Shown here: one piece after another, positions 9,241 through 56,800 of the stretch | How positions within the stretch are numbered: the stretch's first letter is position 1 | How the letters are laid out: every line of letters starts with the position of its first letter | From: Dendronephthya gigantea | Taxonomy: Eukaryota | Assembly (NCBI RefSeq): GCF_004324835.1 | Contig: NW_021163190.1 | Location: 255,242-319,241 of the forward strand | DNA length: 64,000 nt | Direction of reading: 5' to 3' | The notes under the pieces: generated by a model | Databases searched by the model: none | What the model was told of the DNA's origin: nothing | The model's input: the letters and a program-made list of their open reading frames with translations, nothing else | Translations under genes and position numbers: made by a program

Positions 9241-12200
9241 CTTATCAGACAATAAAATACAAAGCTTTTAATGGATATTAATGGAAATGGAGCATTTTAA
9301 TTGGTTCTTTAGCGGTCGGTAACCCCCAATATTGACCGCTAAGTTTTGGCGGGAAAAAAATGAAATTTAGTGTTTTGAGTGATTTTCTTCAAAAACTCTG
9401 TTTGGGAGAACGGTTTAGAAAGTTTAAAATGTCTTAAAGGGAAGAGGAATTAATTGGTTTTTATTATCCGGAAAAAGATGATGTTTTGGGCAACGTAAGG
9501 ACTTGAATAGCTAAAGAAATTAACGAGATTGGGCTGCTTCTAGGCAACTAGCTAGCGACCCGGAACTTGCAAACAGAAGGATTATTTGGGTTGCATCAAG
9601 GCGAAGATATGCACTTTACTTATTAGGAAACTTACCAAGCGATTTCGAACCACAATCAACCAGCATTTTCTCAATTTCCGAAGCATTTACCGGAAGGTAA
9701 TTATCTAGACGAGAATCTGTTAAATTCCAAGAACCATCCTAGAAGAAGTTCCGGAAAGATGTAAGTACACATCCACTATGTATATCAGTCTAGAGTTAGT
9801 TTAGTTTAGGTTTCCTCCTGTAGTAACACTGGACCAATAAGAGATGATCCTTACTGGACCTCTAGGAAGAACAGTTTAGAACTGATAGAGCTATCCAGTA
9901 TAAATAAAGTTAGTTTAGTTTAGGTTTCCTTCTGTAGTAACACTGGATCAATAAGAGATGATCCTTACTGGACTTCTAGGAAGAACAGTTTAGAACTGAT
10001 AGAGCTATCCAGTATAAATAAAGTTAGTTTAGTTTAGGTTTCCTCCTGTAGTAATACTGCATCAAATAAGAGATGATCCTTACTGGACCTCTAGGAAGAA
10101 CAGTTTAGAACTGATAGAGCTATCCAGTATAAATAAAGTTAGTTTAGTTTAGGTTTCCTCCTGTAGTAACACTGAATCAATAAGAGATGATTCTTACTGG
10201 ACCTCTAGGAAGAACAGTTTAGAACTGATAGAGCAATCCATTATAAATAAAGTTAGTTTAGTTTAGGTTTCCTCCTGTAGTAACACTGGATCAATAAGAG
10301 ATGATCCTTACTGGACCTCTAGGAAGAACAATTTAGTCTTATATTACCTCATCTTGTAACAGAAATACCCCGATTGGTGGTCCCATCTTTTGTGGTGTCG
10401 ACTGCATTTCTGGAAGGTTGATCGAACATCTCATCATCCGGCCTGCCCTTCTTCTGTGTAATCTCTCCTCTATTTGCAAAAGTAATAGTCATTTCAACTT
10501 ATATTTCGCTAAACAAGAACAGAAGTTAAACGCTAGCCTTCTAAATAGCTTACTTTTGGGCAATTTTACATCAGGGGCAGTTGTTCAAAGCTAGGTGGGC
10601 GCTAACCCTGGGTTAAATCTTAATCCAGTGTTTTATATAGTTGACGTGCTTCTGAGCCGCTGTTCGTTACAAAATATGACTTCTATCCGTCAAGAAAATA
10701 TTTATAAAAAAAGGTATTCAACTTTGTAAGCAGGCAATAAAAAATTTAATGTAAAGATTTGCTTTAACCCAGGGTCAGAGCAGTTTCGAATATTTTTGGG
10801 GTTTCGCAGAATTGTAAAAACAGCTTTGGAAACGAACTTTTAATCGGCTGTTGGTTGTAGCAATTTAGAATAGAATGGCATTACGATGTTGACAGGCTTA
10901 ATAAAGAGGATATTTTCTATGCCACGTATAATATTTGTTTAATTTCTTTTAAAATTGAGAACGTTTTGCAACCCTCAAAAACATCGAAAAACAATGTTTA
11001 CTATTTCATCTAAAAACAACATTAAAATGAAGAGATTTCTCGGGATACGACGAGAATTAAATGACACTTAAATCGAAGCTTCTTTTGCATTCATTTCAGT
11101 TATAATGGCGTTGACATTATAACATTGTTGATAGCCGCATTATATTTTGAAAAACCTCTCGTCGTTTAGTGTTTTGCAATCACCAAATATCGAGCGATAG
11201 AAAGGTTTGACCAAGGTTAACCGCGCTTTTTGTTAGATTATTTCTGGACAGTACTATAATTATAGCAACTTGAGAATACTGATGAGTGACTGTTACATGA
11301 AGTTTACATCAGTGACTAGCGCTAAATAACGCAGGCATAGGTCTGGACAGTGCTATAATTATAGCAACTTGAGAATACTGATGAGTGACTGTTACATGAA
11401 GTCTACATGAGTGACTGGCGCTAAATAACGCAGGCATAGGTCAGCGGGCTCGGCGGAGCACATGGAAACTCGAGCGAGATAACTTGCAATCAGTTGGCAT
11501 TATTTTTTGTGTTCATATTTTTGTACAAGAGTTTTTCTCTAGAAATAAAAAGAGTTCTTCGTACACAACAATGAGAATATTCATTGTGACGATTAGTACA
11601 TGAGTTTCGAATAATATTTTTTTCTAACAAGTGAAGAGGTATATACCTTTTGGTTTTGAAGTGCTATACCATCGCCTAGAGGAACCGCTTGCCACAGGCG
11701 GTGGAGGGGGTTCCCGTGACTCGATGGATCTGCGGAGCAAGGGTGAAGCGGCGGGGGATGGCGTTTCTTGTTCTTCTTGTGTTTGTTCTTTATCCGTCTG
11801 AACTTGCTGACTGCCAAGAGACAACGCTACAACGTTCTCCGAAACCCCATCTTCTTTTTTCCTCCGTTTAGGAGAATCTGCTGATTTCAATGATAAAATA
11901 CAACTAAAGCGCCTCACACGAGAGCTGGTAGCTGAGGTAAAGACCTCGCAAGGCTGGTAATTTGCTCAGCAAGTTAGAGGCTGTTTGCATGAGCCCGGTT
12001 ACCCGAGATTCAACGAAGCGTGAGATGATTTTGAGGTATTGTAACAAGTCTTTATGACACGAAACAAGCACATGCAATTGTTCTGGTGAGTATTCGACTG
12101 CCAGGATCATGTTATCTGCTCATTTCAATACCTCAAAATCATCTCACGCTTCGTCGAACTCGGGTAACCGGGCTCATGAAAACAGCCCCTTACTCTCGTA

Positions 12201-21200: not shown

Positions 21201-24200
21201 CATAAGTATCATTTAAATGATTTTAAACTTTTAATTGCGTTTACATACGCACAAAAAACACGAAAGTGGAAGACAACCCTTAAGCCACAAGCTAATTTAC
21301 AAAGATTTCGTATTGTTTTCCTTTAAAACTTGAAATTTAAACATTCACTGAAGCTGGGAGAGTCTATGGAAAGTCTGCGAAATACAGATAATGTACAAAC
21401 GTCGACAGAATATCGGTCGACTTTTACGCTACTTTTATGACTATTTTTGGACTAAATTTAATGACGGCAGAAGTCAGTGAATATGGAGACAGAAGTTCAA
21501 TAATCAAGAGTGAATATGGAGAAGAATGTTGTGAATACCCAGAGAACATTCCAAAGAACATTTTTCTACGTCCATATCAAAACAAAGCTCGCTTGACCCT
21601 CCACCGAAACCATAAATTTCTTCATCACCTGTTCATGCCAGAGAAAAATAAGTTAATAATTTAGATTTACTGCGTATAGACAATACGTTCAGTTCTGGAG
21701 TAAAATGATAATATATATGTTATTTACCAGATTGGAGGTCTGTATAGGGAAATATTTCCCAAGGTCTCAAAAACAGCCCGAGCCCGAAGGCCGAGGGACG
21801 TTTTTAAGACCGAGGGAAATATTTCCATATACAGACCGACTAAACTGGTAAATAATAGATTTATTTTTTTTCTTGCGGTTTGAATTCGTATTTTAGCGTT
21901 GGCTCTGCGCTTTTAAATCTCGCCCGGTCCGTACGGCCTCATACGGACCGCTCGCGTAGCCAATCAGATTGCAGAAAACGCTAAAATATGAATTCGGACC
22001 GCAAGGAAAAAAAATATATCCAGTGCGAAACGTTTAGATTGTCATAAATTTTCTTTACCAGTAGAATCATATAATCGATGCGAAGAATCGAAATCCGTAA
22101 ATTCGGGAGAAAAATTACGCACCATCAAACCAGGATATGCAAGCTGTAAAAAATATTATTCATTTGAAATATGGCAAAGAGATAAAATATTTTTTTAGAG
22201 TTTCAGCACATTTAGGGACAGAAAATCATCCTAAGCTATATACTATAAATTCTACTGAAATACACGAATGTAGGTTAGGATTATGTTTTAGATTAGGTTC
22301 ATGGTTGATGAGGGTTAGCCTTAATCCTTAATCCTTAATCCTTAATCCTAACCCTAATCCACGGACATGGAATTATTAACAATTTGGGTTTGAGGATGGC
22401 AGCCAAGTTATCGTTCCAGTCTAAGTAGAGTTCAGTGTTACTTTATTAACAAACCTCATGAGCTGCGCCCAAAAGTTCATCAACATCACCAGAAGACAAT
22501 GATTCCTCCTCTGATTCATCCTCTGAGTCCTCTGATTCCCCCTCTGATTCCTCATCGTCCTCCTCGAACCCAATATATCCCAAGATATCCACATCTTCTC
22601 CATCAAGAATTTCGTCGACGTCCGGCGCAGTTGTCGAATCAAAGGTCTCGCCTTCTTCACGCTTTTCAATTGCGACAAAACTTGTGAACTTGGACGTGAC
22701 TGAGTATTTCTTGCTTATTTCAATAATATAATCTTTGCGAGACACCTTGACCGCCTGGAAAATAAGATTACAACGTCGTTCAAGAACAATTACAAAATTA
22801 AACCTCCATGAAAAAAAATTACGACAATTTTCCGTGAATTTTGATGCAAAGCCTTGTTTACACCTGCGATTTTCCCTGATGTGCGATTTTCTCCTTTCGA
22901 TAGATGCGAATGAACGAATAAGTTGCGGATGTTCATCTTAGGAGACTTATACATTAGAACATTGACAACTTTTGCTCGTTCCCATCTGTCAAAAGCAGAA
23001 AATCGCACTTAAAATTGCAGCAAAAATTGAAAGTCTAAATGGGCATAAACGTGGTGTTATAAGCATTTAGTTATAATCAAGACTAGTGTTATTAATAATC
23101 AAACAATATTGAAATACCAGCTAAAACAATAAGTGTAGTGGTTCAGCCTACACAGACCTGGTGATGGAGGTGGTCTGGGGCAAGTAATCCTTCTTCCCAA
23201 TCATTAATCAGTGCCCTGGCTGTCAGCTGATGCAAGGTTGAACCAGAGGTGATACTCAGTTCTGACGTTGAGACCATTGTTGAAATCTCCTTGCCATTTA
23301 TCATAGCTTTTAATGTCGCCTGGAAAAAACAAATAAGAGATGATCCTTACTGTACCTCTAGGAAGAACAGCTTAGAACTGATAGAGCTAACCACTATAAA
23401 TAAAGTTAGTTTAGTTTAGGTTTCCTCCTGTAGTAGCACTGGGTCAATAAGAGATGATCCTTACTGGATCTCTAGAAAGAACAGTTTAGAACTGATAGAG
23501 CTATCCAGTATAAATAAAGTTAGTTTAGTTTAGGTTTCCTCCTGTAGTAACACTGGAACAATAAGAGATGATCCTTACTAGACCTCTAGGAAGAACAGTT
23601 TAGAACTGATAGAGCTATCCAGTATAAATAAAGTTAGTTTAGTTTAGGTTTCCTCCTGTAGTAACACTGGAACAATAAGAGATGATCCTTACTGGACCTC
23701 TAGGAAGAACAGTTTAGAACTGATAGAGCTATCCAGTATAAATAAAGTTGGTTTAGTTTAGGTTTCCATACAGTTCAGATCTCCATACCTGGGTACAGTA
23801 AGGAACAAAGCCATACACCACTTGTCTCGAGCCATTGAAAAGCGATAATATTTGGCTTGGGGCCTGGATTGGAGTTGGTGCGTCATTATCAAACTGTTGC
23901 CAGGCAACAGATACTGACGTGAGGACAGGTTGTTGCGACCTCGAGATAAAAGACTCCACTTTTCTTTTCCATTTTGACTTGACTTTCTCGTCAAAGTATT
24001 CCGACGCGCCTGCGCCAACTTTTGCCAAAGTCCGCAAGAAATAACGATTTGCAGAAGAGCTATAAAATAGAAAGACATTGAATTCTAGTTTCTGCTCATC
24101 TCAACTCATTGCCGAGGTTTATGTGTTTACAATGGCAAGGAATTGGTTTGAATCCTGTTTCAAAGATTTGTTATCGAAATGTATTACGCTAGACTAACGC

Positions 24201-27200
24201 CTGTATTCTAAAAGCTAGACTAACGCCTGTATTCTAAAAGCTAGACTAACGCCTGTATTCTAAAAGCTTGACTAACGCCTGTATTCTAAAAGCTAGACTA
24301 ACGCCTGTATTCTAAAAGCTAGACCGACGCCTGTATTCTAAAAGCTAGACTAACGCCTGTATTCTAAAAGCTAGACTAACCCCTGTATTCTAAAAGCTAG
24401 ACTAACGCCTGTATTCTAAAAGCTAGACTAACGCCTGTATTCTAAAAGCTAGACTAACGCCTGTATTCTAAAAGCTAGACTAACGCCTGTATTCTAAAAG
24501 CTAGACTAACGCCTGTATTCTAAAAGCTAGACTAACGCCTGTATTCTAAAAGCTAGACTAACGCCTGTATTCTAAAAGCTAGACTAACGCCTGTATTCTA
24601 AAAGCTAGACTAACGCCTGTATTCTAAAAGCTAGACTAACGCCTGTATTCTAAAAGCTAGACTAACGCCTGTATTCTAAAAGCTAGACTAACGCCTGTAT
24701 TCTAAAAGCTAGACTAACGCCTGTATTCTAAAAGCTAGACTAACGCCTGTATTCTAAAAGCTAGACTAACGCCTGTATTCTAAAAGCTAGACTAACGCCT
24801 GTATTCTAAAGCTAGACTAACGCCTGTATTCTAAAGCTAGACTAACGCCTTATTCTAAAAGCTAGACTAACGCCTGTATTCTAAAAGCTAGACTAACGCC
24901 TGTATTCTAAAAGCTAGACCGACGCCTGTATTCTAAAAGCTAGACTAACGCCTGTATTCTAAAAGCTAGACTAACCCCTGTATTTTAAAAGCTAGACTAA
25001 CGCCTGTATTCTAAAAGCTAGACTAACGCCTGTATTCTATAAGCTCGCTCGCACTCAAACTCATTGAGTGGGAGGTCTTAAAATTCTCATAACGTTTCCA
25101 TAACGTTATTTTCAGTAGAATAGGGGCTTGATTTTCAGTGATTTACCTTCTGCCTCCAACTATTTAGAAAGAACTTTCTTATTGTCCAGCATTAACAAAA
25201 TATTTATGTCACACTCAATGAGATGAGTGTGAGTGTGCTTTTTGGATATGGGTGTATATCTCACGCTGCTTGTTCTAAGATTATTGACAAGTGTTCAAAG
25301 CCCAAAACAAAGAGATGTGCGTCCAGGGGCGTTACTAGAACGATGATTGGGGGGGGGGGTGAATATATTCATATATTCAGTTCTGCCCGACGGATTTCTA
25401 TTGTCAGCTATTGCAATTACAAAAAGAAATCCGTAGGGCAGAACTGGATATATGAATATTCACCCCCCCCCAATTATCGTTTTAGTTACGCCACTGTATG
25501 CGTCTTTTGTATCAAGTTATATCATCTTGATATGCGTTATGCCACCTTGAAAATATTCATCCATAAACACTGTAACTTACCCTACACCAAACGTGAATAT
25601 CCTGGTCTGAGCAAAGCCACTGGTTGCCAGTCTCAAAACCATCTCGGTTTCGGTCACGTGCCCATCACTGAGAACACACACGTTCCTCACGTGGACATTG
25701 GATCTCACCGGTAGTAGACTTAAAGCTCTTAAAATCTTCCAGAGATCAGTGGCTCCCATATCACTGGTGCGGTTCTAAATAGGAATGATAATGATTACAT
25801 GAAGTTTCCAACACAGCTAAAGTACGCGTTACTTTATAGTATTTTACTCTGTCTAATGTCAGATGATTTTACTCGTCAGTGGAAGAGTACTGTCAGTTAA
25901 TAAGTTAACAAAACTATCTGTCAGTGTCTCTTGTTAACCCATTAGCTTGCAATGCACCCAGATGTGGCCTTCTTTAGTATTTTACTCTGTCTAATGTCAG
26001 ATGATTTTACTCATCAGTGGAAGAGTAGTGTCAGTTAACAAGTTAACAAAACTATCTGTCAGTGTCTCTTGTTAACCCATTAGCTTGCAATGCATCCAGA
26101 TGTGACCTACTTTAGTATTTTACCTGTCTAATGCCAGATGATTTTACTCATCAGTGGAAGAGTACTGTCAGTTAATAAGTTAACAAAACTATCTGTCAGT
26201 GTCTCTTGTTAACCCATTAGCTTGCAATGCACCCAGATGTGACCTACTTTAGTATTTTACCTGTCTAATGCCAGATGATTTTACTCATCAGTGGAAGAGT
26301 ACTGTCAATTAATAAGTTAACAAAACTATCTGTCAGTGTCTCTTGTTAACCCATTAGCTTGCAATGCTCCCAGATGTGGCCTACTTTAGTATTTTACTCT
26401 GTCTAATGCCAGATGATTTTACTCATCAGTGGAAGAATACTGTCAGTTAATAAGTTAACAAAACTATCTGTCAATGTCTCTTGTTAACCCATTAGCTTGC
26501 AATGCACCCAGATGTGACCTACTTTAGCATTTTACTCTGTCTAAAGCCTGTCTAAAAAGTTGTTAAAACGTCCTTTGAACTTACTTTAACAAAAGCAGCA
26601 GCTTCTTTCATACTTTTCTCCGTCTTCTCAACACTTGACGGAAATAACTCCAACCATTGGTTTCCAAAAGCAACGATATTAAACCTAGCGTTTGCTGGTA
26701 GTTTGTTCAGGGCAAGAAGTAGAATTTTCTTTGCATTGTCAATAGAAGATCCCTGTATTGATAAAAACTCGATAAAATAGGTTTGAAAAATAAGAAAATT
26801 TAGTGTGAAGCTTGAATCTTCCATTAAACTGAACGATATGAAAGCCATGAATCGTTCCTACCTTCATTGAACAAGACACATCCAATAGGAAGACATATTC
26901 GACATTTTCAATCGGGTCTGCCTCGAATTCAGGGTAAAAAGACAACATACAAGCCTGGATAAAAACAAAAATGGCTGAAACGAAATGGCTGAACACGAAA
27001 AACAAAAACGTTTTTCGTGTCCTCATATAGGGGAAGCTTTTGGGTGGAAAAGGTGATTTTCATGAACGCGAGAAAAAACTCACAAATGCTTCAAAATCTT
27101 TAGTGATATCAGACAGTACAGTTTACAACTTTCAGAGTTTTCTGACCGTAAAAGTGCTGGACAAATGAAGCAAGAAAGAATCGCTTAATTTTAACATCAA

Positions 27201-36200: not shown

Positions 36201-39200
36201 TTTATCAGTGAGGATTTTTAATACCAGTGTTTTAACGTTCTAATAGTCGGCTAATTCCTAAGTATTAAGACGTGATTTACTGACGTTTGTTGTAGCTTAT
36301 TTGCTACCGAAAAATGTCGCCATTATGAAATCAGGAACTACTTTAAGGAAATTATCAGGATTTGTAATTGTTCGGCGCATTATTGCGAGGAGAGTCCAAA
36401 TAACATCATCTTGGAAACTCAAGATTTGAGTTCGTAGAACTCTCGTTATGTTTCGACTTTATTCCAAAGTTTTTGTCCATGGGTTTGACAGTGACTTTGG
36501 AATAACAGATTTTCTTCTTTTGATGGATGTGATCGAGTTGATAAATTAGGAATGCTTGAAATAAGAGCAATTGTATACACAAAGCATTCATAACTATTCA
36601 CTCGTTTCCATCTGTCACTTGTCGCTTTGCGAATATATGTGAAAAGACTGATAGCCTGGTTTTTCGCCTTTGCTTCTACCCGCAAATTTTAGGGCGGGTG
36701 AAACGTAGGTCTGTGTTCAGGCTAAATTCACCGGCGAAGTCCGGTTTTCATTTCATCGTAATTGTCGTGAAGAAGTCATTTTCACCGATGAGAAATAGTC
36801 CGGATGTAAATTTGTCTTTATTTCAGTGTTTAAATCGGTCATTGTCGACTACACACACATAGAGATACTCTCAATCACATCAAACACCTTGACATGTTCA
36901 CGACACTCACGAATAAACGGAAACCAGAAGCCAGGGGCCGGTTGTTCGAAAGGCGTTTAGCTTAAACGGTGGATAAGTTCAAAAAAAAAAACCAAATTAA
37001 CAATTTATTGAACAACTGAGCTGAAATATTTCGATGTAAATAGTTTAATTGTCAATGGAAGTACACATTGAATGCATAAGATGCAGGTTCAGTCATTCAC
37101 AAGATGTATTAGAGTATTTTTAAACTTTGGCTTATCCACCGTTTAAGCTAAACGCCTTTCGAACAACTAGCCCCAGTTGTTCAAAGCTGGGTTAGCGCTA
37201 ACCCTGGGTTAAATTTTAATCCACTTTTAAGTGCTTCAGAGCCGCTGTTCGTTTTAAAATCTTTACAAAATATGGCTTTGCCAGTTCAGAAAATGTTTAT
37301 GGAAAAGATATTCAACTTTGTGAACAAGCGATGAAAAATATTGATGTAAAGATTTTCTTTAACCAAGGGTTAGGCTAACCTACTTTTGAACAACTGGTCC
37401 CAGGCATAAATGAAATTCAGCCCTTAGGAGCTGTTGTTGAACGATGGTTAAAGGATTAGAAATTGATTAAACACGCACCCAGGCCCCTCTCCTCCTACCT
37501 TCCACGTCCAATGACAGTATCATCGATGATGACATCCGTTACATCGTCTTCTGGTAAACTAAACTCGACCAAATATCGAATCCTTTGTTGGTTGACAGAG
37601 TAAACAACATATTCGTCTTCTTCAAATTCTGATGGACAAGAATTTGGTTGGTTTTTGACACCGTGACAGCTCTGGTAGCCATCGGGCGCATGCTCCAAAT
37701 CATAGGTGAATTCTGTGAAGTCCTGGAAACGAAAGACCAATTCATTATTGAACATGCGGTCAGTAATGAGAGTAGTTGACTTTCTCCAAGTCTCGCTCAA
37801 AATGGTTTTAGATTTTGATAGGTCTATCCGCGGTAATTTTGAGATCAGTGCGTACTACAGATCTCAAGATTACCCTGGATAGACCTATCGAAATCTAAAA
37901 CCATTTTGAGCGAGGCTTGGAACAAATCTATGAGACTAGTGGATATTGAAACTGAATGAAGAGTTTGTGATGATTTGTGATGGTGCTATAACTCTGTCTC
38001 TGAGTTACCAGCCACGCAAGATGTAAGACTTGCTTTACCACTGTGGGAATCGAACCAGCGACCTTTGCTTTGCTAGTCCACCTCACGTGATGGACAATCA
38101 CAATTCACCTTATACCCACATTCACTATCACTTTAAGACACACAGGTATGGCAGGGACTAGATCAGTTGAACACCGCAGAAATTGGTGTTTATGAAGTTT
38201 CAAGCCGGAAATCTATAAACACTGGTTCGCAATTGTGCATTTCTGTATCGCTATCAAAGAGAAAACTATTGAATAACTTTGAAAAGTTCAATTTTTCTTC
38301 TAAATACGCATTCTGCAATCTTTTGACAGCTCATCATACACATCTGACAGCTGTGAAATGGCCATTTTGAGGCTTGAAGTATACACAAGGTTATTAATTC
38401 AGACGATTCGTTTTTGCCATGTGCAAGCTTCAAATCTTTTGTGCAAGACATATTTTGCTCAGTATTTATGCAGCGGTTTTCTCACCAAGTTTGAAGCCAA
38501 AGTACTGAGAATTGCAGGTTAGTCTTACCAATTTTTGCGGTGTCAATTATTTGACTTTCAGAGTCAAAGATAGATTCAGCAATTAAAAATAATAGCTATT
38601 TACCTTGACACGCCCTAACGCAACCTCGCATATGAGAAGTAACCGTGTTCCCCGAGTTTTTCCTGGGGACGAGTACTTCACACTCGTCGTCGCATCCGAA
38701 CCGAAGTAGATTCCAGTCCCCAAGTTACCAGCGTCCGAGCGCTCACCTCCGAAATCACGGACCACAATTTTGGGGGGAAGAAGACCCCGGGATAAAATAC
38801 CCAGGAAATTTTGCGCTTTCGAGGAATGGAAGAGTTGACGAATGTTTCCAAGATGGGATTCGAAATGCGCTGACTCGGCTGGACGTTGGCATGAAAATAT
38901 GTTCTGTACTTTGATATTCCTAGAAAAAAATGTATAAATAAAGTTGTCTTAGTTTAGGTTTCCTCTTGTAGTAACACTGGATCAATAAGAGATGATCCTT
39001 ACTGGACCTTTAGGAGAATAGTTTAGAACTGATAGAGCTATCCAGTATAAATAAAGTTAGTTTAGTTTAGGTTTCCTCCTGTAGTAACACTGGATCAATA
39101 AGAAATGATCCTTACTGGACCTCCAGGAAGAACAGTTTAAAACTGATAGAGCTATCCAGTATAAATAAAGTTAGTTTAGTTTAGGTTTCCTCCTGTAGTA

Positions 39201-42200
39201 ACACTGGATCAATAAGAGATGATCCTTACTGGACCTCTAGGAAGAACAGTTTAGAACTGATAGAGCTATCCAGTATAAATAAAGTTAGTTTAGTTTAGGT
39301 TTCCTCCTGTAGTAAAACTGGATCAATAACAGATTATCCTTGCTGGACCTTTAGGAAGAACAGCTTAGAACTAAAATAAATCTTAGAGGAACCTATGTGA
39401 TTTCAATTTTAGGAGAAAATAGCTGGCAAATATTTCCTTACCTGGTCGAGGATGACAGCACTTTATTGACAATGTTCAAGTATTCGTCTGTTGTCTTCGA
39501 AAGACTTTCAAGATGACAACCGCACGCTTTGTATTTTGCTTCGTCGCTGCTTCGCGTTGAGAAATTCGTCGCTTCGTTTACATTTAAGATGTCTTTAATT
39601 AACTAAAGAAGAATAAAAATTAGCCTCGATAAATTGGAAATCTATTTTTAATATTTTGAGTATTTTATTATATACCTTTGGGGGAAAAATAGTCAAATTT
39701 AACCAAAATATTGTCGATATAAAAAAGAGCGGGAAAACTTCCGTCAATTTCCGGAATGATACGAGAACTTCCCGCGCTTTCCGATACTAACTCGCGGCCT
39801 TTGATTGGCTTAGGAACAGATTTCACTTGTTCGCTTGACCAATCAGATTATCTGTTCGGTAATGTTAGCCAATCAGAACGTACCTGACAGAGATCCTGTT
39901 TTTCTGCAATAACTCGCTTTGTTTTAATTTCTTTCACGTATTCCTCGTTGTGTGGAACGAGCGAGTAAAACTCCTGAGAATATTTCCCCAAATTTTCATC
40001 CGAAGCATCGCCTTTGTCGAGAATTTCTCGAATAGCTTGCAATACTCCTTCAGCTTTTGAGATATCTTCCAGTTTGAGCTGTTCAACCGAATCGCTGAGT
40101 AGAGAACTCAGCTCTCCGATCGCTTCAGACGAGATGCTGTGAACAAGCGCCTTCACAGGAGGAGACAGATTTTCTTTGTTCAATACTTCACTGGATATAT
40201 TGTTCTGAAATGAGTCAAAATACAAACTTAAAATCAGTAAGCTCTGTTCTAAGCTGTTCTACCTAGAGGTCCAGTAATGATCATCTCTTATTGATCCAGT
40301 GTTACTACAGGAGGAAACCTAAACTAAACTAACTTTATTTATACTGGATAACTCTATCAGTTCTAAACTGTTCTTCCTAGAGGTCCAGTAAGGATCATCT
40401 CTTATTGATCCAGTGTTACTACAGGAGGAAACCTAAACTAAACTAACTTTATTTATACTGGATAGCTCTATCAGTTCTAAACTGTTCTTCCTAGAGGTCC
40501 AGTAAGGATCATCTTTTATTGATCCAGTGTTACTACAGGAGGAAACCTAAACTAAACTAACTTTATTTATACTGGATAGCTCTATCAGTTCAAAACCTTT
40601 TCATGACTTACAGAAATCATTTTATGCGATCCAACACCAGGAGGAAAGGCTGAGAATTGCCGACGGTATTCGGGCTGTTGTTGTGAACAGAAAAGGGAAT
40701 ACAATTGCTCAGCAGTATCGGAGTTGTCGGCAAAACGACATTCCTTTTTGTCAGGTTTCTCATTCACATCAATTCCCTGAAAGAAAGCAACGTTTTAAAT
40801 GAAGAAAATAAAATTCAAACTACAAAATTACCGCGAAAGCTTACACTACAAGAACTTAAATGTAACCTACTGGGGCTGGTTGTATCAAGCCCGTTTAGCT
40901 TAAACGGTGGATAAGTCAAAATTAAATAACACTTTTACACTGAACTCTCTTGAATGAGTCAACTTGAATTCTATGCACTGAATATGTAGTTGTAAACAGT
41001 ATCTTTGTATTAAGGTTAAAAACATTTAGTTCGCTTGTTAAATAATTCGATAAACTTGCTTTTTATTTTGAACTTGTCCACCGTGTAAGTTAAACGGGCT
41101 TGATACAACCGGCCCCTGTACACTGAGAGATAATGCTAAGCCAAGAAGAAGCTGTTTTAAACGGTACAATCTAACAAGTTCTCCGCTTGTCAAACCTTTT
41201 GAAGGATTCCAGAATGAGAGAATATACGATGACTTGGATGTGATTTTTCGATGTCAATCTCACCTTCCTTGGCAGTACTGATATGCAGTTCAATAGCGAC
41301 AAAACGAAACAAACCATTTTTGTCAGATTTCTAGAAAATATTTAAGTATTCCTTGTTAGTTTACGGGTCAGGTAATCCGTTTTCAATCTTCATCAAAATG
41401 CGTGTCCATGCAGTAGTCACGTATAGCTTAGCCTAGAGCTAGCCTTTCAAGCGAAGAAACTTTCTATAACCGGTTATTTAAACGATATTGGAGCAAGTTA
41501 GCCGTTAGTTAGTTTTGAGATTTGTGTGGCGTTACCTTGTGGGCAAAATTTAAGAGGAAGTTACCTTAAACCACGAATGTTTAACGATTTCAAAATCATC
41601 AGATGGAAAGAAAGGAATAGACTCGTTATCTTGATTAAACTGATAAACCCTACGGTAGAAAAGTACATTTGAAACGTCAAACTATTACAGAAGGAAAATA
41701 TAGGGGAAATTATATGCATTCTACGAATACGGCAGGGGCCCGGCGGTTGTATCAAGCCCGTTTAGCTAAACGGTGGATACGTTCAAAATAGAAAGCAAGT
41801 CTGCCGTTTTATTCAACAAGCAACTAAATGTTTTCAACCTTTAATACAAAGATAGTGTTTACAATACATATTCAGTGCATAATATTCAAGTTGACTCATT
41901 CAAGAGAGATGTAAGAGTGTTATTTAATTTTGACTTATCCACCGTTTAAGCTAAACGGGCTTGATACAACCGGCCGCAGGTATACACAGTTTTTGAACGC
42001 GAACTTTTTCAAAACAAAACAAATTTCAGTTGTAAATTTCTTCGCGTAATAAATTTGGCGCCAACGGATAAACCCAGTGCGCTGATTGGTCAAAAATTGG
42101 CGGGCAATTACTAAACGAGCCGCGCTGATTGGTCGAATTTAGTCCCCCGTGATGCCTGACGACAGCAAGAAAGAAGAACACTTCGCAAACTCGAAATTTC

Positions 42201-45453: not shown

Positions 45454-48400
45454 CTAAAAGTGAAGAAACAGGTAACGTAAATAAACTGATAAATAAGCAA
45501 GTAAACAAAAACAAGTTATGGAAAACAAATAAACAAACAAACAGAGGAATACAAGAACAAATATTCTTCATTCAAACCTCCAATGTTTTTCCACTCTTCG
45601 ACTTAATGCAATCTTTTCACCAATTTCCGTACAGACAGGTTGTGTCAACACGATCTTTGCCAAATCAACTTTGACTGCGAGAACTCGACCACCAGTTGAT
45701 AGTGAACCAATGTTGACCATCAGAACTTCGTTTTTCGCTAGTTTTTGAACCTGGATAAAGATTATGGAGGAATCAATATTCATCCAATGTCACCACAGGA
45801 GGAAATCTGATCAATCCAGAATAGCTTTACCAGTTCTAAACTGTTCTTCCTAGAGGTCCAGTAAGGATCATCTCTTATTGATCCAGAGTTACTACAGGAG
45901 AAAACCTAAACTAAACTAACTTTATTTATACTGGATAGTTCTATCAGTTCTAAACTGTTCTTCCTAGAGGTCTGTTACATGATACATAATATCATGTAAT
46001 TAGATCGTATAATAATATAGAGTCATATACTTAGCTAGTATAAATATATATACCTTTTAGTTAGTTAACCTTATTCTCGCAAGACTTACATGCATGAGTA
46101 AGCAAAATAGGTATAAGCATGAGCAGGCAATAGCTATGTCCACGCCTAACCGCAAGTGCGTAGCTTGGTGTCAACCACAAAGCCATGGTAGCATGCGCTA
46201 CAACGCTCTGAATTGCGTAGGGGAAATTACTTGTTGTTTTGCAGTTTCTCTTAGCAAGCGTATATAAGTCGATCCGAGCGCAAATAGATATAAGCAAGCG
46301 ATTACAGCCATTACAAGATGCCATAACTGACGATGCTAATTTAAGCTGACGGCTGACCAAATGAACATTATAACATAGATGGATGTATGATGGATTTTCA
46401 ACTATGGAGCTATTCACTGTTACTCTTACCAGATAAGTTAATGTTAGGAAATAGGATATTGTTAATGTGCTTTGTAAAGTTTAAGTTGTTTATTGCTCAC
46501 TATAATTCACTAAATGTTTTAAAATGCTCAACACTGTTCTCATTTTTTGTTCGTTCTCACCGGCGAACGTAACAGGTCTAGTAAGGATTATCTCTTATTG
46601 ATCCAGTGTTACTACAGGAGGAAACCTAAACTAAACTAACTTTATTTATACTGGATAGTTCTATCAGTTCTAAACTGTTCTTCCTAGAGGTCCAGTAAGG
46701 ATCATCTCTTATTGATCCAGTGTTACTACAGGAGGAAACCTAAACTAAACTAACTTTATTTATACTGGATAGCTCTATCAGTTCTAAACTGTTCTTCCTA
46801 GAGGTCCAGTAAGGATCATCTCTTATTGATCCAGTGTTACTACAGGAGGAAACCTGAACTAAACTAACTTTATTTATGCTGGATAGCTCTATCAGTTCTA
46901 AACTGTTCTTCCTAGAGGTCTAGTAAGGATCATCTCTTATTGATCCAGTGTTACTACAGGAGGAACCTAAACTATTTTATCCAGAAACATTTAACATCAC
47001 ATATTGTATGTTTACTCTACCTTGGCAGCTTTTTTGTCACCCTCTGTTCGAACACCCAGCAACCTCCTCAACAAGAAATAACTGATTTCCAGTTCTGTGT
47101 AGATTTCTGGCAACGCATCAGCTGCTCCCAAAACCTTACCAAAGAAAATAAAATATTTTGTCAAAAGGAATTGAAAGCTGTAAATAATGAAACCTAAATG
47201 AAATTCTGTACTTACATGGCCAACCATTCTGTCAGCTCTGCAGAGAGTTGGGTCAATTTTCGTTCCAACACCTGGTTTATAATGAAGATAAATGATTATG
47301 AAATGCTGCTTTTTACATGTTTTAATGCAATGGAAATTTGATCAGATATCCCCCAATGCTCGAGTTGTCTGACACAAAAGGTCTACATGTGTCTTGGGTA
47401 AAGTTTGACAGATCTTTCTGCAAAGAGTTGGGTCAATTTTCGTTCCAACAACTAGCTTAAAATGAAGATAAATGGAATATGAAATGCAGTTTTTCACATG
47501 GTTTAAATGGAATGAAAAGTTTGATGAAATATCCCTGATACAAAAGACATGTTTCTTGGGTAAAGTTTGATGGATATTCTTACCAATTAGTCCACCAGGT
47601 ACGGCGTACTGAAGATCATTTTGTTCGGCGAACAACGAAACAATCACAGAACAGATTGGTTCCCAACGCAGTTTTCCTTTCTCATCTTTGGAAACAATGC
47701 CTGGACGTACTTCAATCTCTTGACCAACCTAAAATGTTGAATTAGAAATGAATGAAAAGTATAGACCTGCTTCAAATCAGACCTATTGCATCCTTTAAAG
47801 TTCTGGTAAGAGTAATAATTTAGTAGAGCTTTGTAGGTGGAGCTATCAATTGTACGCATTTCCACAACAATGTAAACTTGGAGTAGCTGGGAAGATCTCA
47901 AAGAAGCTGGTTAATTCGACTTGTTTGTTATGGAATGGGGACAGCAAAAAGTGATCAACCATACCTTTAAGACACCTTGGAGAATGCTTCCTCCAGCAAC
48001 ACCTCCTTTAAGGTCTTGTACTTCGCATCCAGGCTTATTCACGTCAAAAGAACGGATCACTGAAATCAAGCAAGTATTTCAAGGTTTAAATTGTGAATAA
48101 TTCTTCAACCAAAGCAAGATACAGTTTCATTACACCATTCATTCAACTGCAAATGATTCTACAGTATTTGGTTATAGTCATGTTGGTCAGTCATCTCACC
48201 AATGAGCCTTGGTTGTGATGTGAAGTCTCGTCTTGGGATGGGTATTTTCTTGCAAATATATTCACAGATGACTTCAATGTTGTATTTCAACTGCGCCGAG
48301 ATTGGAACAACTGGAGCTCCTTCAGCAACTGTACCTTTGGTAAGGATAACACACAAAATTATATTTTGTTTCAAACTGTTCTTCTAGAGGTTTAGTGAGG

Positions 48401-51400
48401 ATAATCTCTTATTGATCCAGTGTTACTACAGGAGAAAACCTAAACTAAACTAACTTTATTTATACTGGATAACTCTATCAGTTCTAAACTGTTCTTCCTA
48501 GAGGTCCAGTAAGGATCATCTCTTATTGATCCAGTGTTACTGCAGGAGGAAACCTAAACAAAACTAACTTTATTTATAAATGTAGGACAAAGCAAATACC
48601 TTCAACAAATTTCAGAATTTCTTTATACTGGTCCTTTGCTTGACTTTCTCGTACAAGATCAATTTTGTTTTGCAAGATGATAATATGTTCAAGTTTCATG
48701 ATCTCGATTGCTGCCAAATGTTCTGATGTCTGAGGTTGGGGGCACGATTCATTGCCAGCTGGAATAAAGATTGAAGAATACAGTTATGTACATGCCATAA
48801 AACTGTCACTTGTCAACTCTCATGCAACTCTTGTTCTGGTTTGATCAAGCAATGATAGTTGATGAAACTCTCATGTAAACTCTCACTTGTCAACTCTCAT
48901 GCAACTCTTGTTCTCGTTTGATCAAGCAATGATAGTTGATGAAACTCTCATGTAAACTCTCGCTTGTCAACTCTCATGCAACTCTTGTTCTCGTTTGATC
49001 AAGCAATGATAGTTGATGAAACTCCCATGTAAACTCTCGCTTGTCAACTCTCATGCAAGTCTTGTTCTTATTTGATCAAGCAATGATAGTTGATGAAACT
49101 CTCATATAAACTCTCGCTTGTCAACTCTCATGCAACTCTTGTTCTCGTTTGATCAAGCAATGATACTTGATGAAACTCTCATGTAAACTCTCGCTTGTCA
49201 ACTCTCATGCAACTCTTGTTCTCGTTTGATCAAGCAATGATAGTTGATGAAACTCCCATGTAAACTCTCGCTTGTCAACTCTCATGCAACTCTTGTTCTC
49301 GTTTGATCAAGCAATGATAGTTGATGAAACTCTCATGTAAACTCTCGCTTGTCAACTCTCATACAACTCTTGTTCTCGTTTGATCAAGCAATGATAGTTG
49401 ATGAAACTCCCATGTAAACTCTCGCTTGTCAACTCTCATGCAACTCTTGTTCTCGTTTGATCAAGCAATGATAGTTGATGAAACTCCCATGTAAACTCTC
49501 GCTTGTCAACTCTCATGCAACTCTTGTTCTCGTTTGATCAAGCAATGATAGTTGATGAAACTCCCATGTAAACTCTCGCTTGTCAACTCTCATGCAACTC
49601 TTGTTCTCGTTTGATCAAGCAATGATAGTTGATGAAACTCTCATGTAAACTCTCACTTGTCAACTCTCATGCAACTCTTGTTCTCGTTTGATCAAGCAAT
49701 GATAGTTGATGAAACTCCCATGTAAACTCTCGCTTGTCAACTCTCATGCAACTCTTGTTCTCGTTTGATCAAGCAATGATAGTTGATGAAACTCTCATGT
49801 AAACTCTCACTTGTCAACTCTCATGCAACTCTTGTTCTCGTTTGATCAAGCAATGATAGTTGATGAAACTCCCATGTAAACTCTCGCTTGTCAACTCTCA
49901 TGCAACTCTTGTTCTCGTTTGATCAAGCAATGATAGTTGATGAAACTCTCATGTAAACTCTCGCTTGTCAACTCTCATGCAACTCTTGTTCTCGTTTGAT
50001 CAAGCAATAATAGTTGATGAAACTCTCATGTAAACTCTCACTTATCAACTCTCATGCAACTCTTGTTCTCGTTTGATCAAGCAATGATAGTTGATGAAAC
50101 ATTTAACCCTCCCATTTTAACACATTGGAATGGAAATCTCACCAATTAGCAACATTGCGGCGTCCATAACGGCTGCTCCGTTCAACATGGTTGCCATAAG
50201 AATGTCGTGACCTGGGCAATCCACGAAAGAAACATGTCTACAAAATAAACAATCATTTCTCTATGAATAGATTTTAGAAAGTGTTCTATCAAGATTTACA
50301 ACGCACAAAAATTCATGGTTTGTAAGAGTTTATGTACACAAACCTCACTAACTGCGATTTACCCTGGCAACCTGGTCTTTCACATGGTATGATGTCTTCG
50401 CGAGCGCTTCCTGCTGATCGATAACAGCTGGGCCTCTGACAACTGGGGTTGCTGCATTTGTAGATCTAAGAAATATTTTTCTTGAAATATGGGGTAGATA
50501 CTGTAGGCATTCTATTTTCTGCAATGAACTACATATATTCTTTGAAATATGCTACAGCAATGGGTAAGGTAAGGAAAATTATCCAGAGTTTCTGATTTCT
50601 TTTGTCTGTCAGTGAAGAAATATTAAAATTGTATGGCTAATTCCAAGGCTAATTGTCGGTGGAGTAAATAAACTTTTGGGTAAAAATAAATAAGAAATGT
50701 TCGGAATAGAATTATCTTGTGTTAATCAAGGGCAAATCTAAACAAAAATCAGTCTAGTTGAGAGGCCTTGGGTTTGTTGCAAATGCACTAGACTTAAATA
50801 TTAAGCTTAGTGGCTCTTGTTTTAGTTGATAGGTTCTTCTAATATTTTAGATCCATACATTCAAGACGAAATGTCAAGTCTATAACTATCAATATATGTA
50901 GTGATCATTGTACAGTACGTGATTAATTAAAGGTCTGTTCACACAATACAAATTTATCAGATCCAATTCACTTCTGATGGATTTTTTATAATCTGTTGAC
51001 TTGCAAAGTATACGGGCAGCAAATCAACTGAAGCCAATGCAGACTGTTTTATCAATAACAAACTATATTCCATACATCAGAAGTGAGTTGGACCCGACAA
51101 AGTTGTACAGTCTGAACAGGCCTTAATTTGTTTAAGTATTTATATAACCATAGTACCTTTGCATTAGCATAGCCAAGCTTGATTGTGATATTTCGTTCAA
51201 GTTCGTTTTTAAATCGGACAGTCTGGAAAATAAACAAGCATATAGCAGGTTGTCGCAAAATTTGATGACAACATAAAATGCTGTTTATAATGTCTGAGAT
51301 TTATATCTTTCAGAAGTCGCAGTTTTGACGGAAGATGAACTTTGCTACCAAGTTATTATGATAGCTCTCTATTCTAACTCAGGCAAAATGCCATGATAAA

Positions 51401-51636: not shown

Positions 51637-51676
<40 letters not shown>

Positions 51677-52497: not shown

Positions 52498-52608
52498 GAT
52501 TGCATCAACAAGGTTTTGTTGATGAAATAAAAATGAAATTTTTCTTGCGTAAAAAAGCAAAAAATGAGCGAAATTCTGCTTCGAGCTGATGCAATACACG
52601 AGTGACGG

Positions 52609-52970
52609 TCAGTGACCATTGATCTCTGTAACTGGAGTGATCACGAGAGATGCACTGAGGGATAAACAACACTGGAGTGATAAAAGAGCACCCACTGAGA
52701 GACAAGTGTAACTGGAGTGATCACAGAAGATACACTGAGAGATAAGTATAACTGGAGTGATCACAGAAGACGCACTGAGAGATAAACATACTGGAGTGAT
52801 AACAAAAGACGCCCTGAGAGATAAGCACAACTGGAGTGACTACAGAAGACGCACTGAGAGATAAGTATAACTGGAGTGACTACAGCCAGACGCACTGAGA
52901 GATAATTATAACTGGAGTGATAAAGAAGACACACTGAGAGATAAAGCATTACTGGAGTGATCAAGTGTAA
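52609..52970. repeat. 39-bp minisatellite, about 9 copies (actggagtgatcacagaagacgcactgagagataagtata), 110-470 bp upstream of the EIF2S3 ATG
   Basis: Seen directly. Confidence 0.9.
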
Positions 52971-53559
52971 GCATTACTGAAAAGATACATTACCCACATC
53001 TTAACGGCTATCTAAGGGGAAGATGCACTACGGCCCCCAGACCATGATGTATGTGCACCTAACCGTTACGTCTCAGTGAGAAACAGAGTATGCATTGCCA
53101 CAAGCCTAGCGCGTCATAGACGAATCAGCTACAATGACAAGCCTTGAGAGCGAAGATAAATTTAACGTATTTAAGCTTTCCATTGTGACTCACCAAAAAA
53201 CTTTCATTTTTCCACACGGAATAGTTTTAATGTACACTAATAAGTATATCTACATAAAATCATGGTGCAACTAATTAAAGAGATCTATACATTTACTGAG
53301 GACGGTGATCTTCAATACAAGATGTTGAACTTAAAAGTGTACATATAAGTGCAAAAATAATCAAATTTTATCTTACAACAAACTAATATATTTCATCGCA
53401 AGGTTAAAATCAAAAGTGTGCAGTCTGTGAGGTATATTTTTTCAGTCAATAAAACTATACGAAATTATGTCACGGTTAGGCTAGAATAAACACGGCTAAT
53501 ATCAAGTCTATAATGAATTAAGACGAGAAGTTGAATATTTTGAAGACGCATTCTTATGG

Positions 53560-53820
53560 TTAAGCAATCAGCACTTCTTTGTCGTCAAAGGCCAGTTTTT
53601 CAGGCAACGGCTCAGCTTCGTCATCCTCCATTTCAAATTCAGCCTTAAAATCGTTGCCCTTGCTGATTTCATAAGCTTTCTTGCTCTTGCGACAGCAACA
53701 CATAGCACAGCACATCATGGATGCCAAGACGACAAGGACCAAGCCGACAAGAATTGCAACTCGCGCGCCAAATGGAAGCTTATGGAAACTGGAACAAAGG
53801 CTTTTGCCGTGGTGATGTTT
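53560..53820 (-). CDS. TM-protein exon 6 (TM helix and cytoplasmic tail, stop at 53560-53562)
   Basis: ORF 53560-53742 extended to the acceptor ttatctag|AAACATCACCAC. Confidence 0.55.
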   Translation of the reverse strand, partial: KHHHGKSLCSSFHKLPFGARVAILVGLVLVVLASMMCCAMCCCRKSKKAYEISKGNDFKAEFEMEDDEAEPLPEKLAFDDKEVLIA

Positions 53821-56800
53821 CTAGATAATGTAGATATTTATTACATATTATATTTATTACATATTATATTTATTACATATTAAATTTATTACATATTATA
53901 TTTAAGGGTAGATATTTACTACAACCTGAGGCGGTTCGAGGTTTAAATAACAAAGAGGAATTTCATTTTAAACTAATCGGTGTATTTGGTGACATTTTTG
54001 AGGGAAAGCCAATCAGAATGCGTACATTTTAATTACTTCATGTAAAATGGTACATATTGTACTTTTTATCAAAATTTATGCATTCTGATTGGCTTACTGA
54101 AAATGTAAACAAACTTGCTGATTGGCTAAAACGAAATTCTAAATAAATCGATTGAAATCGTCTGAAAAACCACGAAAAAAATCGATTTTTTAAAGTTTTT
54201 TTTTAAGTCCTGGCAAAATATTGCTGTAAGAATAAACTTCACGCATACGAATTCAAAAGTTTACTCTAGAAAGCAATCGTATTTTGGTATAATACTAATC
54301 CTAATATTCACAAAAAGCATTTTCTTAAAAATAAACCGTACAAATTCTCCGCTATTAAACATGAGCCCGGTTACCGAGATTTAAAGAAGCGTTAAATTGA
54401 CTTTGAGTTTTTGAAATGAGTAAATAACATGATCCTGGTAGTCGTGAAGTCATTCTAACAATAGCATGCAATGTTTCTGTTTCAAAAAGACTTTTCTCAA
54501 TACTTAAAATTCCGTTTTACGCTTCGTTAAATCTCCGTAACCTGGCTCATGCGAAGAACGTTTAAAATAAGAATTTGTTTACTTTCTCAGGCTTAGGGCG
54601 TGTTTATATGATCCCGTCTAGCCGGGACGGGATGTTTTCATCCCGCTTAGCCGGGAAACTCGCCTACGCGGGATGGCGTGTTTATATGGAGTTCATTTTG
54701 TGGTGCAGGTTCCTTCGACGGCATGTTTTATTGTAGAAAACGAGTATGCCAATATATACACATGCTCCTAATGTATGTTAATCGCGAATCATCTCGGCCA
54801 AGCGGGATGGAGTGTTTATATGGCAATTTCTCGTCCTGTCTAAGCGGGATCCCGGCAAGAAGTGCCGAAGAAAAGTGGTCATATAAACACTAATTAGCGT
54901 TTGTACTACAAGCGGGATCTCGGAAACTGTCCCGTCCCGGCTAGACGGGATCATATAAACAGGCCCTAAGTTGAGCTACCGTTGAATCAAGGACATATGC
55001 TCCACTTTGCTAAAAAGCATCTTCGATAGTTACTAATACTACGCTATTTTGTTTAAATGTGACTGAGTTTTGAACTTTACGACAGTGGTATGAATTTTAT
55101 CCACACATTTTATACAAAACTTTTGAAAGCTTACATGATGATGACCATATCCTTTCTCGTCTGGCAGAGATGGATCCAAAAATCTTTTCGGCTTTTTGTC
55201 ATCTAGAAGTTTCAAATAGTTCGGATATTGTTACCAAATTTAGCTCCATCAGTTCTAAACTGTTCTTCCTAGAGGTCCAGTAAGGATCATCTCTTATTGA
55301 TCCAGTGTTACTACAGGAGGAAACCTAAACTAAACTAACTTTATTTATACTGGATAGCTCTATCAGTTCTAAACTGTTCTTTCTAGAGATCCAGTAAGGA
55401 TCATCTCTTATTGACCCAGTGTTGCTACAGGAGGAAACCTAAACTAAACTAACTTTATTTATACTGGATAGCTCTATCAGTTCTAAACTGTTCTTCCTAG
55501 AGGTCCAGGAGGGATCATCTCTTATTGATCCAGTGTTACTACAGGAGGAAACCTAAACTAAACTAACTTTATTTATACTGGATAGCTCTATCAGTTCTAA
55601 ACTGTTCTTCCTAGAGGTCCAGTAAGGATCATCTCTTATTGATCCAGTGTTACTACAGGAGGAAACCTAAACTAAACTAACTTTATTTATACTGGATAAC
55701 TCTATCAGTTCTGAACTGTTCCTCCTAGAGGTCCAGTAAGGATCATCTCTTATTGATCCAGTGTTACTACAGGAGGAAACCTAAACTATATTTATATTGG
55801 ATGAACAAGATACAATAACATACTTTTTCCACAGTATCTGGACAACTCAGCTTTTTTAATGTTTGATTCCTCGAACTTAACCGCAGCAATTGTTCGTCTG
55901 AATTCTTTGCCATTCACATCCATATGAATTGTCAGCACCTGAGTAGATTAGATTGATTTTTAAAGCTATTAAAGTGTTTAATATCCTTATGCATTCAACA
56001 GGACTCTTGATTCTTAAGCCCTGGTCAAACGAGAATGATAGTTGATGAGAGTTGAGAAGCGAGAGTTTGCACGAGAGTTTTCCAAACTCTCGATGCGCCG
56101 GTCAAACGAGAATGAGAGTTGAGAACGAGAGTTGATTACGGCGCGCATTAATTTCGTCCTTACTCCACTTCGTTTTGCTATTTTTTTGTTTCTGCCCGTT
56201 GTTTTCAGAAGATTTCTTTTTTTTTTTCAAAAAAATTGCAAACCGCTAGCTGTTTTGCAACTCTCATCAACTCTCATGACCGATCAAACGCGCCCAAACT
56301 CTCATCAACTCTCATCAAAATTTGAACCAGTTCAAAGTCAATGAGAGTTGATGAGAGTGCACGAGAGTGTATGAGAGTTCGCGGTCAAACGCAAGCGAGA
56401 GTTGCAACTCTCATCAACTCTCATTCTCGTTTGACCAGGGCTTAAAGGTTTCATCCATAAAAATTACCTGAACATCGACTTGTTCAACTCGCTTTTCATT
56501 GATGAATTGCACTTGTTCTTCGATCAAATATTGATGTCCCGATTCCAGCTCCTTTCTCATCACCATTACGTGAATTATGACAGGAAGAATGCGAACATCT
56601 TTGGCAGAGTAAACTGTGAAATGAATACACAACAATTAGCCCAGAACTTATCCAAATCTTCTCTGTCAAAAGAATTTAGGCTGTATGCACATGAAGGTAA
56701 ATCAGTTATGATTTTTGGCACTTCACTCGAGGTAGGTAAATTCTAATGGTTCTTAGGGTGTTAATTTCGAGTGGAATTATACACACTTCAAATTCAAGCC

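Follow-up and report, generated by a model that had tools for sequence, protein, structure and literature searches.

Introners, known from Micromonas, Aureococcus, fungi and many aquatic eukaryotes, have the new intron as their defining feature (PMC9860276). A 64-kb stretch of the genome of the octocoral Dendronephthya gigantea (NCBI RefSeq assembly GCF_004324835.1, contig NW_021163190.1, positions 255,242 to 319,241, forward strand; these 64,000 nucleotides are called the window below, and coordinates are counted from the first of them) holds a tandem repeat, SatA, that shares much of their appearance: a single repeat family nearly fills many introns of unrelated genes, in both orientations, and reaches their splice sites, so that a screen for similarity between intron ends could flag it. 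SatA differs from introners in that its host introns are ancestral, in having no unit-length element, target-site duplication or terminal inverted repeat, and in that its ends stand in no consistent relation to splice sites. The intron-filling pattern has an ordinary explanation: SatA is probably an old, dispersed octocoral satellite family whose short arrays lie inside pre-existing, very short introns and have largely replaced their original sequence. The genuinely unusual result is the invariance of SatA across species.

Dispersed satellites offer a further comparison. In the oyster Crassostrea gigas, dispersed euchromatic satellite-like arrays are carried by Helentron/HINE elements (PMC7492417, PMC8268682), whose flanking modules, with subterminal inverted repeats and a palindrome, surround the central repeats (PMC7492417); similar short arrays occur in Tribolium (PMC4675708). 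SatA shares with these the short array (2-5 units), the monomer of more than 100 bp, the residence in gene-rich DNA and the slight homogenisation within arrays; it differs from the oyster Helentron arrays in lacking conserved flank modules, and from oyster and Tribolium arrays alike in being confined here to short introns, trimmed to the splice signals, and invariant in consensus across deep divergence. "Frozen" old satellites, of which the bivalve BIV160-type repeats are an example and for which the library model is invoked, keep their monomer consensus over very long spans. SatA likewise retains its consensus while abundance and freshness differ among lineages; what sets it apart is that the consensus differs by 0-1 change in 114, at orthologous intronic loci, beside synonymous sites that are saturated. 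Alu-type intronic repeats are retroposed short interspersed elements, inverted pairs of which flank exons; inverted SatA arrays bracket PARP4 exons in a comparable way and, to judge from their complementarity, could pair in pre-mRNA, but SatA is a tandem DNA repeat and not a retroposed element. The literature searched yielded no description of octocoral intronic satellites, of the SatA sequence or of introners in Dendronephthya.

SatA arrays and the introns that hold them

SatA forms 11 arrays of 1.3-4.8 units in the window, amounting to 4,022 nt or 6.3% of it (Tandem Repeats Finder (TRF), blastn and nhmmer agree). All 11 are intronic, in 10 introns of four genes: PARP4, EIF2S3, an unnamed gene and an FDX2-like gene. 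The period is 114 bp (94-97% matches in TRF), a nucleotide less than the unit of about 115 bp estimated in an initial annotation made from the sequence alone; array lengths run from 152 to 548 nt and unit numbers are non-integer. The arrays lie in both orientations with respect to their host genes, as that annotation had stated:

9791..10336, plus strand: SatA array, 4.8 units, antisense to PARP4; intron 9739-10347 (609 nt), 90% SatA; donor/acceptor flanks 11/52 nt
23332..23767, plus strand: SatA array, 3.8 units, antisense to PARP4; intron 23320-23788 (469 nt), 93% SatA; donor/acceptor flanks 21/12 nt
28047..28343, minus strand: SatA array, 2.6 units, sense to PARP4; intron 28016-28393 (378 nt), 79-84% SatA; donor/acceptor flanks 50/31 nt
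29023..29321, plus strand: SatA array, 2.6 units, antisense to PARP4; intron 29017-29363 (347 nt), 86-89% SatA; donor flank 42 nt, acceptor flank 0-6 nt
38932..39372, plus strand: SatA array, 3.9 units, antisense to PARP4; intron 38920-39441 (522 nt), 85% SatA; donor/acceptor flanks 69/12 nt
40243..40596, minus strand: SatA array, 3.1 units, sense to PARP4; intron 40205-40611 (407 nt), 87% SatA; donor/acceptor flanks 15/38 nt
45821..45972 (from 45776 by nhmmer), minus strand: distal SatA segment of EIF2S3 intron 12; distance to the acceptor (45751) 25-70 nt
45973..46573, minus strand: insertion of 601 bp, later than the SatA array of EIF2S3 intron 12 and dividing it in two; 6-bp target-site duplication AGACCT; termini GTTAC...GTAAC
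46574..46974, minus strand: proximal SatA segment of EIF2S3 intron 12 (45751-47020); distance to the donor 46 nt
48370..48578, minus strand: SatA array, 1.8 units, sense to EIF2S3; intron 7, 48335-48599 (265 nt), 79% SatA; donor/acceptor flanks 21/35 nt
55241..55788, minus strand: SatA array, 4.8 units, sense to the unnamed gene; intron 55203-55823 (621 nt), 88-90% SatA; flanks 35/38 nt (21/38 nt with the nhmmer boundary)
60715..61053, plus strand: SatA array, 3.0 units, sense to the FDX2-like gene; intron 60714-61064 (351 nt), 96.6% SatA; donor/acceptor flanks 1/11 nt

(A note on gene structures: the genes first proposed from open reading frames were borne out by spliced alignment and Pfam. 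PARP4 is on the minus strand, with Pfam PARP_reg, PARP and VIT matches that span the proposed junctions; EIF2S3, also on the minus strand, has 14 exons; the unnamed gene lies on the minus strand at about 55 kb, and the FDX2-like gene on the plus strand at 59.6-61.2 kb. Splice sites of EIF2S3 and FDX2 were set by spliced alignment; at the junctions of the six PARP4 introns and of the intron in the unnamed gene, just one phase leaves a long open frame. Coding exons 1-3 of the FDX2-like gene encode 137 of the 137 residues of the NCBI model LOC114541667 with 0 mismatches, the poorly conserved presequence included.)

Nine of the ten introns are 79-97% SatA. The tenth, EIF2S3 intron 12, is 44% SatA now and was once about 85%, because its two arrays are continuous in register and are split by the 601-bp insertion with its target-site duplication. 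That SatA fills ten introns in four genes is thus confirmed. The AGACCT duplication includes a variant base of the SatA array, and the insertion looks like a transposon insertion younger than the array. (It is present as a single copy in the window, and was not found in the loci fetched from other species.)

The fit to the splice sites is close. In the nine filled introns the non-SatA flanks measure 1-69 nt on the donor side and 6-52 nt on the acceptor side, so that the 0-50 nt of the initial annotation describes most flanks and is exceeded by two (52 and 69 nt). The array lies 6-12 nt from the acceptor in four introns, and the branch-point and polypyrimidine region of these must therefore be SatA. 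One of them is intron 29017-29363, where SatA supplies both and where the distance from array to acceptor, previously put at 10 nt, measures 0-6 nt. Intron 23320-23788 had been singled out as one in which the SatA end provides both the polypyrimidine tract and the AG: the upstream region is indeed SatA, but the last 12 nt (TGTTTTTTCCAG) are not clearly so and the AG is not demonstrably SatA. The FDX2-like intron goes furthest, its only non-SatA parts being the 5' G and the 3'-terminal 11 nt (TTTTTCTCCAG); its donor, GTAAGA (G|TAAGAG), is SatA-derived apart from the G. In several introns, then, the donor, or else the branch-point and polypyrimidine region, has come to be SatA sequence. The non-SatA remainder of the nine filled introns (12-81 nt) is shorter than the shortest repeat-free introns of the window (81-124 nt), and the ends of the FDX2 array differ between Dendronephthya and Paramuricea while the 3' flank TTTCTC(C)AG is common to both; original intron sequence has accordingly been replaced, not just added to.

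The non-random distribution that had been asserted for SatA is upheld by count: five of six insertion events fell in introns with a non-SatA remainder of at most 85 nt (26 introns were mapped), and such introns make up 4% of intronic bases (P = 6e-7 length-weighted; P = 0.007 with each intron weighted equally). No SatA was found by nhmmer in the long PARP4 introns or the intergenic DNA of the window. The accompanying argument, that satellite expansion would not track exon boundaries so tightly, is contradicted by the neighbouring introns: a 77-bp repeat, a 14-bp-based repeat and a second satellite, SatB, each fill about 82-94% of an intron. The tight fit is not special to SatA.

Some features of the sequence around the arrays may be recorded here. 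Two pairs of inverted SatA arrays bracket PARP4 exons: 28048-28305 against 29018-29275 (258 nt, 95% complementarity) and 39021-39371 against 40246-40596 (351 nt, 96% complementarity). On sequence grounds, transcripts of such pairs might fold back into long double-stranded RNA within the pre-mRNA, which may influence exon skipping, circular RNA or editing. The last 35 nt of the PARP4 exon (40612-40647) upstream of a SatA intron are collinear with the SatA unit and share the exact 10-mer TTTCCTCCTG. Exonisation of SatA at this place was considered and rejected: the exon alone gives no match, and the FPPGVGS coding sequence is ancestral, being present in the orthologous locus L011 (introduced below). 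The likeness is coincidence, or microhomology at the array junction. The 137-residue model LOC114541667 ends in ...GLTPT followed by TAA, from read-through of the SatA donor (ACG TAA; window 60711-60719), and is without the last coding exon of the FDX2-like gene (61065-61158). Automated gene models seem to be truncated by SatA introns.

Ancient introns and an unchanged consensus

Does SatA make introns, or move into them? The 64 kb of D. gigantea were compared with about 20 kb from each relative: for PARP4, the syntenic orthologous loci of four other species (L001, L002, L010 and L011, the last a Tara Pacific metagenome scaffold); for FDX2, Paramuricea clavata and Xenia sp.; and for EIF2S3, Nematostella and Branchiostoma (amphioxus). 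Introns 7 and 12 of EIF2S3 occupy the identical alignment column or codon, in the same phase, in Nematostella and Branchiostoma. The FDX2 SatA intron is conserved in codon and phase in Paramuricea and Xenia: in Xenia it is 64 nt long and has no SatA; in Paramuricea it is 822 nt long and holds 6.9 SatA units in the orientation seen in Dendronephthya. Of the PARP4 SatA introns, five fall within one or more of the four orthologous loci, and position and phase are kept in every covering locus (for one of the five, tested only in L011, the position matches to within two residues in an indel-prone stretch). The presence-or-absence check proposed in the initial annotation has thus been run: host introns are ancestral in all eight testable cases of the ten, introns 9739-10347 and 55203-55823 falling outside the comparison. 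Some host introns are older than the cnidarian-bilaterian split. Since the introns are ancient, SatA moved into them rather than creating them, and the suggestion that it is an introner is refuted, the introns being found at identical codon and phase in species that have no SatA there.

Occupancy of these old introns varies. Orthologs of intron 23320-23788 are filled with SatA in all three covering relatives (L001, L002 and L010), and two of four orthologs of intron 29017-29363 contain it. Introns 38920-39441 and 40205-40611 are without SatA in L011, the sole locus covering them. Intron 28016-28393 has no SatA in any of its four orthologs (L001, L002, L010, L011), and its array is therefore a gain in the Dendronephthya lineage, which bears out the description of SatA as a dispersing repeat that enters new introns.

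Against this background of turnover the consensus stands still. Compared with that of Dendronephthya, it is identical at 114 of 114 positions in L010, at 110 of 110 in L002 and at 113 of 114 in Paramuricea; in the exons of PARP4 and FDX2 that flank the arrays, identity at four-fold degenerate sites is 39-46% (about 1.0-1.3 substitutions per site), and neighbouring introns cannot be aligned. Individual copies are a different matter. Those of Dendronephthya are about 98% identical to the consensus, with monomers as alike between arrays (96.3%) as within them (96.5%). L002 and L010 mix copies of about 98% with copies of 76-88%, and L001 has only decayed copies (72-80%). L011, whose PARP4 silent sites are saturated relative to Dendronephthya, has a solo, non-tandem SatA-like unit at 12333-12459 (about 80% identity, with a 13-nt insertion; nhmmer E = 3e-21). 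Because copies decay to 72-88% in L001, L002 and L010, SatA is individually unprotected. Conservation at the level of the family together with decay at the level of the copy suggests either a selfish repeat family that is under constraint and still being renewed, or spread by horizontal transfer; an unchanged consensus is hard to square with neutral concerted evolution, under which it should drift at the mutation rate.

No single register marks the start or the end of SatA arrays: it varies from array to array in the window and, at one and the same intron, from species to species. All 7 arrays in L002 and all 8 in L010 are antisense to PARP4, and the six of Dendronephthya PARP4 are divided into four antisense and two sense. 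(Matching orientation was entertained as proof that arrays at the same intron are orthologous; its force is weakened by the single orientation of all L002 and L010 arrays.)

How SatA may have come to fill its introns

If SatA did not make its introns, why do its arrays end so near their boundaries? Boundary tracking is best explained by the combination of very short ancestral introns (the shortest repeat-free ones of the window measure 81-124 nt, the Xenia ortholog of the FDX2 intron 64 nt), gain or expansion of tandem repeats, and selection on splice signals. Arrays would arrive as pieces of DNA already in tandem form, such as satellite fragments, circular or linear, that are joined in at breaks, and would then expand, contract and shed flanking unique sequence down to the bases essential for splicing; their boundaries would be drawn by selection, changes that damage splice signals being removed. 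Resident arrays would be renewed by recombination or by re-insertion from a sequence-constrained source: where renewal stopped, copies would decay, and where it is active, about 98% identity to an unchanged consensus would be kept. Renewal is invoked because the consensus is near-identical in four species despite 39-46% four-fold identity, because identity within arrays equals that between them, and because decayed copies lie beside fresh ones. The selection for minimal unique intronic sequence that the initial annotation offered as one of two explanations is broadly compatible with these data. As a class, SatA has the marks of a dispersed short-array satellite, with head-to-tail monomers of more than 100 bp at many loci (11 here and four other octocoral loci), and those of an ancient conserved satellite of the library type, the consensus being kept in distant species while the L001 copies have decayed.

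Several observations weigh against this account of an old satellite lodged in short introns. The long introns and the intergenic DNA of the window, about 35 kb together, are free of SatA, so that random insertion followed by erosion is insufficient alone; there may be a preference for short introns, or SatA may be lost more quickly elsewhere. The uniform orientation in L002 and L010 is not predicted by the model, and the data come from no more than 64 kb of D. gigantea and some 20 kb per relative. The renewal step is itself inferred, no source array, circular DNA or recombination tract having been observed; and because neutral concerted evolution alone lets the consensus drift, constraint or horizontal transfer is needed in addition. 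A bolder version of the satellite reading would supply the constraint: SatA might be a new kind of selfish, intron-resident, naked tandem repeat, the whole 114-bp unit of which is constrained by its own propagation machinery, which would settle and be renewed in short introns (for instance by homology-directed re-integration of circular multimers), remain unchanged across octocoral families while silent sites saturate, and take on the roles of donor, branch point and polypyrimidine tract. We put this forward tentatively, and regard it as doubtful.

The other readings can be weighed against the same evidence. An introner would be a mobile element inserting into exons and making new introns of them, with splice sites that it brings or co-opts. 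SatA looks the part insofar as near-identical sequence (about 96% between arrays) fills ten whole introns of four unrelated genes in both orientations, contributing the donor in FDX2 and the acceptor-proximal region in four introns, and insofar as its unit carries splice-like motifs on both strands (acceptor-like TTTCCTCCTGTAG and TAAGAG on one; GTAAGG, CTAAC and two acceptor-like tracts on the other). Recent intron gain is what the comparison denies it: all eight testable introns stand at the same position and phase elsewhere, in SatA-free orthologs and in outgroups as distant as amphioxus, and instead of a discrete element with ends fixed relative to the splice sites there are flanks of anything from 0 to 69 nt, shifting registers and no target-site duplications. 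That SatA is an introner is scarcely tenable. Might the arrays instead be the central repeats of a non-autonomous, intron-targeting DNA transposon, whether Helentron/HINE, pearl-like or like a miniature inverted-repeat transposable element (MITE)? In the oyster, elements of this sort do carry short dispersed arrays (2-5 units) in gene-rich DNA (PMC7492417), and the array in intron 28016-28393 documents one lineage-specific gain. An all-against-all blastn comparison of the 22 flanks of 150 nt on either side of the 11 arrays found no similarity among them, which removes the conserved left and right modules of Helentron/HINE elements; no terminal inverted repeats or target-site duplications were found at the arrays, and with many start and stop registers there is no defined unit length, so that the MITE-like element of the initial annotation lacks shared flanks, inverted termini, duplications and fixed ends alike; several flanks consist of just 1-21 nt and are splice-site sequence. 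A transposon carrier is, on these grounds, very unlikely. (A Helitron-like reading of the unit, as a hairpin followed by CTAG, was rejected, arrays not ending at that register.)

The invariance of the consensus invites two further readings. The host might keep SatA as an intronic RNA or DNA element, acting in splicing, pre-mRNA pairing or chromatin, with purifying selection accounting for a consensus preserved at 113-114 of 114 positions across lineages with saturated silent sites; the inverted pairs of 258 and 351 nt (95-96% complementarity) that bracket exons, and the retention of SatA in some introns in three or four species, would fit such a role. Free decay of copies to 72-88% in L001, L002 and L010 does not, and neither do gain and loss among orthologous introns, the occurrence of both orientations, or the even spread of variation along the unit (which has stops in all six frames and no CpG). 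SatA does not behave as a structured non-coding RNA family: its folding is not significant (z-scores of -1.1 to -1.5, about -1.2), and there is no match in Rfam at the gathering threshold or at E <= 1. A host function for SatA is decidedly unlikely. Horizontal transfer would dispense with constraint altogether: a SatA source would have spread recently and repeatedly among octocorals, each wave overwriting older arrays. Copies in Dendronephthya and Paramuricea are young (2-5% from the consensus) in genomes separated by about 1 substitution per silent site, L001 has decayed copies only, and there is precedent in the horizontal spread of intron-associated transposons that has been documented among aquatic eukaryotes (PMC12130899). 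Two metagenome scans and one viral scan with conserved 20-24-mers, however, gave only chance matches of 20-22 nt; no vector or autonomous partner was seen; and occupation of the same introns in several species would demand an extra, homology-directed step. Recurrent transfer of this kind we consider unlikely.

For introner screens SatA is a counter-example, since it fills introns, touches splice sites and occurs in both orientations, yet created none of the introns tested; a check of orthologous intron positions is accordingly essential in such screens. It follows also that tandem repeats can replace nearly the whole of an intron, the donor and branch-point region included, while splicing signals are kept. 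And SatA makes the question of "frozen" satellites testable in a group with several sequenced genomes.

Other repeats and genes in the window

Tandem repeats are the largest repeat class reported for the D. gigantea genome (7.24%). The repeats other than SatA that were noted in introns of the window are these:

48800..50100, strand not assigned: 17 copies of a 77-bp unit in tandem; 94% of EIF2S3 intron 6 (48759-50142) is taken up by it, with flanks of 42/41 nt; found essentially only at this locus
25837..26548, plus strand: SatB (138-bp) array; takes up about 87% of its PARP4 intron (roughly 25765-26578)
27568..27880, strand not assigned: 14-bp-based tandem repeat; takes up about 82% of its PARP4 intron (roughly 27528-27906)
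25837-26548, 51957-52116, 57442-57686, 59965-60276, 61571-62757 and 63927-64000: positions of SatB

SatB is a second dispersed satellite, of 138 bp, with seven arrays in the window; these have no shared flanks and lie in introns of PARP4, EIF2S3 and FDX2 and downstream of FDX2. Unlike SatA, it is left in Paramuricea only as fragments, at 81-90% identity.

Three of the genes that host SatA have further peculiarities in or near them. EIF2S3 intron 10 contains a 90-nt duplication (47417-47506 against 47237-47325, 88% identity) that copies the acceptor region of exon 11 and the first 35 nt of that exon, and constitutes a decoy pseudo-exon. Within or close to the unnamed gene with the SatA intron 55203-55823, the minus strand carries a tRNA gene at 56834-56905 (Rfam RF00005, 36 bits). 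Between C-terminal exons of PARP4 (11593-17133, minus strand) there are about five repeated, proline-rich open reading frame units with associated 99-bp and 13/16-bp repeats; the units may be repeated PARP4 exons or a segmental repeat. A long PARP4 intron harbours two tandem, paralogous, intronless genes with a RING/TRAF-type zinc finger and kelch repeats (30617-32230 and 34007-35623, minus strand); one of the two is split into two open reading frames, and the nesting is kept in L001, L002 and L010.

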